From a virus (Duplodnaviria > Heunggongvirae > Uroviricota > Caudoviricetes), in IMG/VR virus record IMGVR_UViG_2703719355_000007: a stretch of DNA of 6,468 bases; one strand, given 5' to 3'. Positions 5,675 to 6,246 of this stretch are shown one piece after another. How positions within the stretch are numbered: position 1 is the first letter of the stretch; every line of letters begins with the position of its first letter. The translations under genes and the position numbers were made by a program. Below the pieces are notes generated by a model. That model saw nothing but the letters and a program-made list of their open reading frames with translations. It was not told the DNA's origin and searched no databases.

Positions 5675-6183
5675 GAGAACTAAACCTCACCAAAGAACAG
5701 CATGAGTGGCTGAATGGCTGGCTTGAACTGTGGGGCGCATGGGTTTATTCAGGTCGTCTGGAAAAGCGCATGAGCAGCGTAATAGCGAAGTTCATGGAGA
5801 GCGTAGAGCCGGGAAGAGTTATGACAAGGCCAATGTGTAATGATGATGATGGAATGTTGATTTCTCAGGTCGTCGATTCCGTCATGTACATTGACAAGAA
5901 AGCCTTTGGCATCCTCCTCAGCTACTACGCTCATGGTTCATCTAAGCGAGCAATTGCATCCTACTATCACGCGACTGCAAAGCCACGCAAGATGTGTGGA
6001 CGTGGTGGCGAGGGATGGAGAAAACCTTCACTGGCAACCTGTAGAAACGAAATTGACGACATCCTGAAAGCGTCATTATTTGTTTTATACCAGCCAATGC
6101 AAAATGCTTTCAAAATGCGTAAACGTGTTGAGAAAGTTAAGCATGTTGCTGTTAAAAGCCTTGACATGCAATTAGCCATTTAG
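5665..6183 (+). CDS. Q: Late-gene antiterminator Q (phage 82 / QuuD-like family, not lambda-Q type)
   Basis: Position immediately after the phosphatase gene. Motifs [10 protein letters not shown] and [13 protein letters not shown] resemble the ERWGAW...RPQCCDDDAMII pattern I recall for QuuD-type antiterminators. GTG start at 5665 behind GGAG (5654-5657), overlapping the phosphatase stop; there is no in-frame ATG upstream of the conserved WGAW segment. Confidence 0.7.
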
Positions 6184-6190
6184 CCATAAT
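6161..6190 (+). promoter_or_regulatory. Candidate late promoter (pR'-like) overlapping the 3' end of Q
   Basis: Perfect -35 TTGACA (6161-6166), 18-bp spacer, -10 CATAAT (6185-6190). Location matches where lambdoid late promoters sit. Confidence 0.4.
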
Positions 6191-6200
6191 TAGAGGGTAA

Positions 6201-6243
6201 GCTGCCGTTAGTGACTCTTAAGTTGCAACGGTGGCTTTTTTTA
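6201..6243 (+). terminator. Candidate intrinsic terminator (tR'-like) or Q-responsive pause/termination hairpin
   Basis: GCTGCCGTT (6201-6209) pairs with AACGGTGGC (6227-6235) as a 9-bp stem with two G-U pairs, followed by TTTTTTTATTT (6236-6246). The 17-nt loop is long, so this is moderate at best. Confidence 0.35.
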
Positions 6244-6246
6244 TTT

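Follow-up and report, generated by a model that had tools for sequence, protein, structure and literature searches.

The end of the Q gene in this stretch of prophage DNA, which is 6,468 nucleotides long and is hereafter called the window, raises the question of whether the sequence around and beyond it is a genuine late-gene switch and, if so, to which family of switches it belongs. An initial annotation, made from the sequence without tools, had proposed that a promoter overlapping the last codons of Q, together with a hairpin and T-run close behind it, resembles the lambdoid pR'/qut/tR' module. Our analysis upholds the module and amends its type: the annotation of Sf6, the alignment with phage 21 and a Q protein 86% identical to that of phage 21 all point to such a module, but one of the phage 21 rather than the lambda kind. 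We are confident that the locus is a lambdoid prophage's cassette for late-gene regulation, which belongs to the phage 21 (Q21) type and is present in the Sf6/L-type allele. A tool-free reading had, in other words, picked out a genuine regulatory switch, although the biology itself is not new, the module being already annotated in Sf6 and its mechanism and structure already defined in phage 21.

The gene immediately 5' of the module encodes an antiterminator of the Q21 family, matching Pfam PF06530 (E=1.1e-25) and falling in PHROG 943, described as anti-termination protein Q-like. Its product aligns with the Q21 chains of PDB 6JNX/6P18 with an E value of about 1e-92. The N-terminal 94 residues are the same as those of Q21; divergence is seen in the C-terminal DNA-binding half, which also has a 10-residue extension. 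Structures of Q21 on Q-binding element (QBE) DNA and on RNA polymerase have been solved (10.1101/651190; PMC6606751; PDB 6JNX and 6P18-6P1C). The window Q is not a member of the lambda/P22 type, to which the Q21-like protein of phage L has been reported to be only 12% identical (10.1101/2020.10.05.325894), and the lambda arrangement of pR', qut, 6S RNA and tR' goes with a different Q family from that of the window.

The sigma-70 promoter that had been proposed at the end of Q is present, with an 18-nt spacer between TTGACA and CATAAT and a score of 11/12, which a promoter scan placed at the top of 12 promoter-like sites in the window (Table 1). Because the stop codon of Q (TAG, 6181-6183) is located within this spacer, the -35 hexamer is itself coding sequence; the same holds for the upstream Q-binding subsite, because the window Q is 10 residues longer than phage 21 Q. 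By itself this promoter match is not beyond chance expectation: when the window was given 2000 dinucleotide shuffles, 442 of the shuffled sequences (22%) held one or more sites of 11/12 or better, and no excess of promoter-like sites was found across the window as a whole. The hexamers alone being compatible with chance, the case leans on the combined parts and on comparative evidence. It is the combination of parts, their place directly after Q, their near-identity to annotated and characterised elements and the covariation seen in relatives that lift the module above chance. The initial annotation had also placed transcription initiation near 6197, and alignment agrees, with the annotated phage 21 start (position 3544 of the phage 21 locus, L002) lying opposite G6197, 7 nt past the -10 hexamer.

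Two parts of the module, the direct repeats and the pause element, were absent from the initial annotation. Two 8-bp direct repeats, AATTAGCC/ATTTAGCC, lie at 6170-6185 between the -35 and -10 hexamers; the downstream copy includes the Q stop codon and, as in phage 21, its final base doubles as the first of the -10. In phage 21 the C residues at -13 and -21 are essential and their mutation impairs Q21 action (PMC6606751), and both are retained in the window, at 6184 and 6176 respectively. At the level of sequence, the window has the paired subsites with their critical C residues, and the repeats are the putative QBE of its Q. Such a variant site is not new, since the phage L genome paper had proposed AATTATCC/ATTTAGCC as the QBE of that Salmonella phage (10.1101/2020.10.05.325894). 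The window differs in having the perfect repeat AATTAGCC, and the AATTATCC variant also occurs in the set of loci collected here.

The second of these parts is the sigma-dependent pause element, or SDPE, a -10-like hexamer at +2 to +7 that is embedded in the leader hairpin. Its TAAGCT matches phage 21, where the SDPE is annotated as TAAGCTG (L002 3545-3551), over the first six bases, and the seventh base, G6204, is likewise the same. The hairpin and T7 run noted in the initial annotation were confirmed and form a predicted intrinsic terminator shortly past the start, with a 17-bp stem bearing one bulge, and this leader hairpin is the same as the annotated phage 21 terminator. RNA spanning 6195-6246 folded with an energy of -20.2 kcal/mol (z = -4.2), and none of 200 shuffles was as stable. 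This energy comes from direct folding, since the bulge and the long outer loop had hidden this structure from the built-in terminator scan. A search of Rfam at a permissive threshold returned just the two tRNAs and a chance microRNA match, with no family over the leader.

Table 1. Features of the putative late-gene cassette in the window
Feature	Position	Strand	Basis
Q antiterminator gene, Q21 family, 172 aa, GTG start	5665-6183	+	Pfam PF06530, PHROG 943, phage 21 Q
-35 hexamer TTGACA of late promoter pR'	6161-6166	+	Within last Q codons; aligned with annotated phage 21 -35
QBEu, putative upstream Q-binding subsite AATTAGCC	6170-6177	+	Aligned with phage 21 QBEu ATTGAGCA; covariation
QBEd, putative downstream Q-binding subsite ATTTAGCC	6178-6185	+	Aligned with phage 21 QBEd AATGAGCA; covariation
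-10 hexamer CATAAT	6185-6190	+	Aligned with phage 21 -10 AACACT
Predicted transcription start (+1), G	6197	+	Alignment to annotated phage 21 start, L002 position 3544
Sigma-dependent pause element (SDPE) TAAGCT, +2 to +7	6198-6203	+	Phage 21 SDPE
Leader hairpin, the tR' stem, 17 bp, bulged A 6210, CUUA loop	6199-6237	+	Folding, phage 21 terminator, covariation
T7 run of tR'	6236-6242	+	Sequence
tRNA-Asn (GUU), predicted first late-transcript gene	6247-6318	+	ARAGORN; Rfam tRNA 53.9 bits
tRNA-Thr (UGU), predicted second late-transcript gene	6328-6403	+	ARAGORN; Rfam tRNA 61.5 bits

Comparison with named phages places this allele precisely. Over positions 5600-6468 the window and Shigella phage Sf6 are 99% identical. 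The Sf6 record (AF547987, features 35980-36063) annotates pR', a qut site and tR' on the same bases with the remark "similar to phage 21", and it also annotates tRNA-Asn and tRNA-Thr on the matching bases. Sf6 shares with the window the -35, repeats, -10, SDPE, hairpin, Asn and Thr tRNAs and a Q of 172 residues. It differs in having a T6 rather than a T7 run, in a single base of the initial transcribed region (TAGAAGG in Sf6, TAGAGGG in the window), in lacking an extra G that the window carries in tRNA-Asn, and in its nin region upstream of ninG, which is unlike that of the window. The Sf6-type promoter segment was found in 305 of 5426 complete E. coli genomes.

The phage 21 record (OL657228) annotates a -35, a QBE (ATTGAGCA/AATGAGCA), a -10, a start, an SDPE and a terminator, each of which aligns onto the window. 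Architecture and spacing are alike, and from 6198 onwards the SDPE, hairpin, T-run and tRNAs are essentially identical. The differences lie in the QBE (TGAGCA twice in phage 21, TTAGCC twice in the window), the -10 (AACACT against CATAAT), the spacer (17 nt against 18 nt) and the Q contact residues (H95/R128 against R95/N128). The relationship is a mosaic one: 5659-5930 and 6198-6468 are essentially identical, and in 5931-6197, which lies between them, identity falls to about 65-75%. This divergent block takes in Q from about codon 89 onwards, which is its DNA-binding half, and the segment from -35 to +1, and its end abuts the first base of the SDPE. Boundaries of this kind indicate that the binding domain of Q moves together with its site and the promoter core as one cassette, apart from the leader, terminator and tRNA module. 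The exchange of these parts as a single unit (5931-6197), with its edge exactly at the transcription start, is one of two modest additions that this work makes to what was known. Phage L gp23 and its proposed QBE belong to the same allele class as the window; the authors of that genome describe a divergence from Q21 that begins at residue 94 and tRNAs that lie 46 bp past the late start (10.1101/2020.10.05.325894). The second tRNA is tRNA-Leu in phage L and tRNA-Thr in the window.

Initiation, pausing, termination and Q-dependent read-through have been demonstrated in phage 21 (PMC6606751), and by analogy we infer the same series of events for the allele in the window. Sigma-70 RNA polymerase would initiate at pR' near G6197, and sigma region 2 would then rebind the -10-like TAAGCT and cause the polymerase to pause. 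Without Q, the hairpin would be transcribed, and the RNA released at the T7 run would be about 40-46 nt long, its end lying at approximately +40 to +46. With Q, two protomers would bind AATTAGCC/ATTTAGCC and be loaded onto the paused polymerase where, as in the Q21 structures, the Q nozzle would sit on the RNA exit channel and block formation of the hairpin (10.1101/651190; PMC6606751). Read-through would be expected to carry transcription into tRNA-Asn and tRNA-Thr and then into lysis and virion genes beyond the window. Short late-promoter RNAs have been reported for phages 21, phi80, 82 and P22, the version in Stx phages being the small RNA StxS, for which the spacing from pR' to tR' is 258 nt (PMC7547250). 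The terminated RNA of the window would be far shorter than this StxS leader, but by analogy with StxS it could also act in trans.

The initial annotation had gone on to suggest that the tRNAs and whatever follows them are Q-dependent late transcripts, at a site where Stx phages carry their toxin genes. Only 4 nt part the T-run from tRNA-Asn, and so the tRNAs would belong to the Q-dependent transcript, the dependence on Q being carried over from phage 21; tRNA-Thr is annotated in both Sf6 and phage 21. The remark about toxin genes holds for relatives and does not apply to this lineage. The window ends past the tRNAs, at 6468, and in both a 99.8%-identical E. coli locus and Sf6 the genes that come next, directly past the tRNAs, are those for a holin, a lysozyme (endolysin) and a spanin, with no stx downstream of the module in either. 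In Stx2c phage 2851 and related Stx phages the match to the window ends at 6270, and phage 2851 encodes a 162-residue, phage 21-type Q followed by tRNA-Ile/Arg/Arg and then stx2. We have therefore set aside a toxin context for the lineage of the window, given the lysis genes in its nearest genome and the phage 21-type allele carried by the Stx2c phages.

The closest match to the window (L083; NZ_CP148401.1 2001033-2019432), which is this 99.8%-identical E. coli locus, is a prophage remnant flanked by two copies of IS1203. It has no repressor (cI), cro, N, O or P genes, and its downstream packaging gene is truncated. The late switch in this remnant may be stranded, and perhaps is never triggered. 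The extra G in the window tRNA-Asn lies near 6310-6311, where the window has CTGGTCCC and CTGTCCC stands in Sf6, in phage 21 and in 112 other loci. Among 114 loci this 1-nt insertion is restricted to the window and the near-identical E. coli chromosome, in which PGAP makes no call for tRNA-Asn. The extra G falls in the 3' acceptor strand; it shifts the register of the acceptor stem and displaces the encoded CCA. If one considers the decay of the E. coli prophage together with this lineage-specific insertion, it may be that the module is an intact but silent relic in which Q is uninduced and at most the short terminated RNA is made. We think this doubtful, since comparison with the viable phage Sf6 reveals no disabling change in Q, the promoter, the QBE, the SDPE or the terminator, and such a reading would in any case bear on the present activity of the module and not on its identity as a late switch of the phage 21 type.

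Wider comparison drew on 400 loci with Q21-family proteins, taken both from viral contigs and from genomes, one for each species, and ranging from Escherichia to Yersinia, Morganella, Providencia, Xenorhabdus and Edwardsiella. The first two scans of viral contigs gave near-identical loci only, and the diversity of the set is owed to the genome scan and to three further scans whose seeds were distant Q proteins. In 394 of the 400 the same order of parts could be parsed: TTGAC(A/T), 2-3 nt, two 8-bp direct repeats, a -10 that shares one base with the second repeat, 7 nt and then TA(A/T)G(N)T. The last of these elements is exactly TAAGCT in 256 of the 394. Of the parsed loci, 373 have a hairpin with a T-run no more than 140 nt from the predicted start, mostly at +40 to +49.

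The leader hairpin is also conserved as a structure. Across 12 diverse relatives 87% of cells in the alignment are paired, compared with 31-62% when the partners are slid, and seven pairs are altered on both sides; none of 500 shuffles attains the covariation score observed for these 12 sequences. In Yersinia, Rahnella, Morganella, Providencia and some Pantoea, a homologous leader hairpin occurs without a U-tract; it starts at the same place and retains TAAG(N)TGCC, and a separate GC-rich hairpin with a T-run comes after it. Leaders from Yersinia, Rahnella, Morganella, Providencia and Phaseolibacter (L178, L180-L183, L185, L190-L194) have this SDPE-bearing hairpin without a U-tract, and a separate strong terminator stands some 20-40 nt further on. 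This pattern suggests that the first leader hairpin is conserved for a reason other than termination alone. One could go further and suppose that the hairpin is mainly non-terminating, shaping the sigma-dependent pause or shielding the 5' end of the late mRNA, and that termination is secondary and was gained where a U-tract abuts the hairpin. The leaders without a U-tract, each followed by its own terminator, are what this stronger view would explain, but we regard it as improbable for the window: here and in phage 21 the hairpin directly precedes a T7 run and is the annotated tR', and the SDPE in the conserved 5' arm by itself accounts for much of the sequence conservation.

Given that Q21 contacts bases through H95, A124, R127 and R128, with R113 in the minor groove (Shi et al.), we asked how these residues vary with the repeats among the 394 parsed loci, in which contact residues and subsites are combined in 73 unique ways. 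Residue 128 varies with subsite position 4, R being found with G in 50 of 50 combinations, N with T in 21 of 21 and K with T in 2 of 2. Residue 95 varies with position 8, where R is found with C in 31 of 32 combinations and H, Y or L with A in all 41. For residue 124 and positions 5-6, R accompanies TGGACA. All four pairings of the 95 and 128 states occur among the loci: H/Y95 with R128 at TGAGCA, R95 with N128 at TTAGCC (the window), R95 with R128 at TGAGCC and L95 with N128 at TTAGCA. On a neighbour-joining tree of Q these states switch 5-13 times, including between proteins that agree fully in their N-terminal halves and are 86-88% identical in their C-terminal halves. The sole exception to the rule for residue 95 is a locus from Shimwellia pseudoproteus (L169), in which an otherwise phage 21-type Q has R95 and the site is TGAGCA.

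Two caveats attach to these data. The Q gene adjoins its own site, so part of the association between residue and base could reflect linkage within one recombining cassette. The assignment of each residue to a position is one of covariation, because the text of both Q21 structure papers names the residues and not the bases that they touch. On one alternative reading, TTGACA and CATAAT resemble a promoter by chance, the hairpin with its T-run simply closes the early rightward operon behind Q, and expression of the tRNAs comes about in some other way. The frequency of equally good matches in shuffled windows and the lack of any excess of promoter-like sites would permit this, but it becomes very hard to credit when the same bases are annotated as pR' and tR' in Sf6, when the phage 21 counterpart has an annotated start and a terminator past which Q21 carries transcription in vitro, when the -35, repeats, -10 and SDPE keep their fixed spacing in 394 of 400 relatives despite diverged sequences, when the bases of the repeats covary with the contact residues of Q, and when the few nucleotides between the T-run and tRNA-Asn leave no space for another promoter.

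Taking the locus, then, as a late switch of the phage 21 type, the covariation supports the repeats at 6170-6185 as the cognate QBE and predicts that the specificity of the window Q is distinct from that of Q21. A simple code may be at work, in which R at residue 128 reads G at position 4 and N or K reads T, in which R at residue 95 reads C at position 8 and H, Y or L reads A, and in which R124 accompanies TGGACA. We lean, with some reserve, towards the broader idea that the Q21 family is divided by such a code into orthogonal specificity classes, and that the leader hairpin is perhaps more than a terminator. If this is true, the switch in the window (R95/N128, TTAGCC) would be free of cross-talk with that of phage 21, and co-resident prophages could fire their late genes independently. 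The residue-to-base correspondence across about 400 loci, which backs the variant site and predicts separate Q specificities, is the other modest addition made here. Both additions bear on how late-gene control is kept or shared among co-resident prophages, including the Stx2c phages with their phage 21-type allele.

Several further features were observed in the course of this work. About 12 loci at first appeared to have foreign sequence before the hairpin, a candidate that was rejected once the sequence was recognised as a second leader allele with an inserted HNH endonuclease gene. This second allele consists of ATTCACA, TATGCT, a small hairpin, a terminator of the form GCCCACC...GTGGGC and a T6-7 run, and it occurs with several Q/QBE classes, with or without the HNH gene. 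In L016 (3027-3733) and about 12-14 other viral loci, the second leader and a gene for a 170-residue HNH/AP2 endonuclease lie between the -10 and the TAAGCT leader. The second leader is thus inserted ahead of the usual one, which would place two terminators in series. The 170-residue protein is 39% identical to the HNH protein encoded in the window (3782-4429).

Between ninE and this HNH gene, on the minus strand opposite the nin genes, the window has an ORF of 590 residues (1539-3311). Searches of Pfam and PADLOC gave no match to it; it falls in PHROG 9230 (function unknown) and is also present in Stx1 phages. Within Q, the minus strand at 5958-5990 carries TTGCGTGGCTTTGC, which fits the CII-binding motif TTGYN6TTGY, together with a -10-like TAGGAT. 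This motif lies at the position of the annotated antisense promoter paQ of phage 21, and it has been retained although the surrounding part of Q has diverged.
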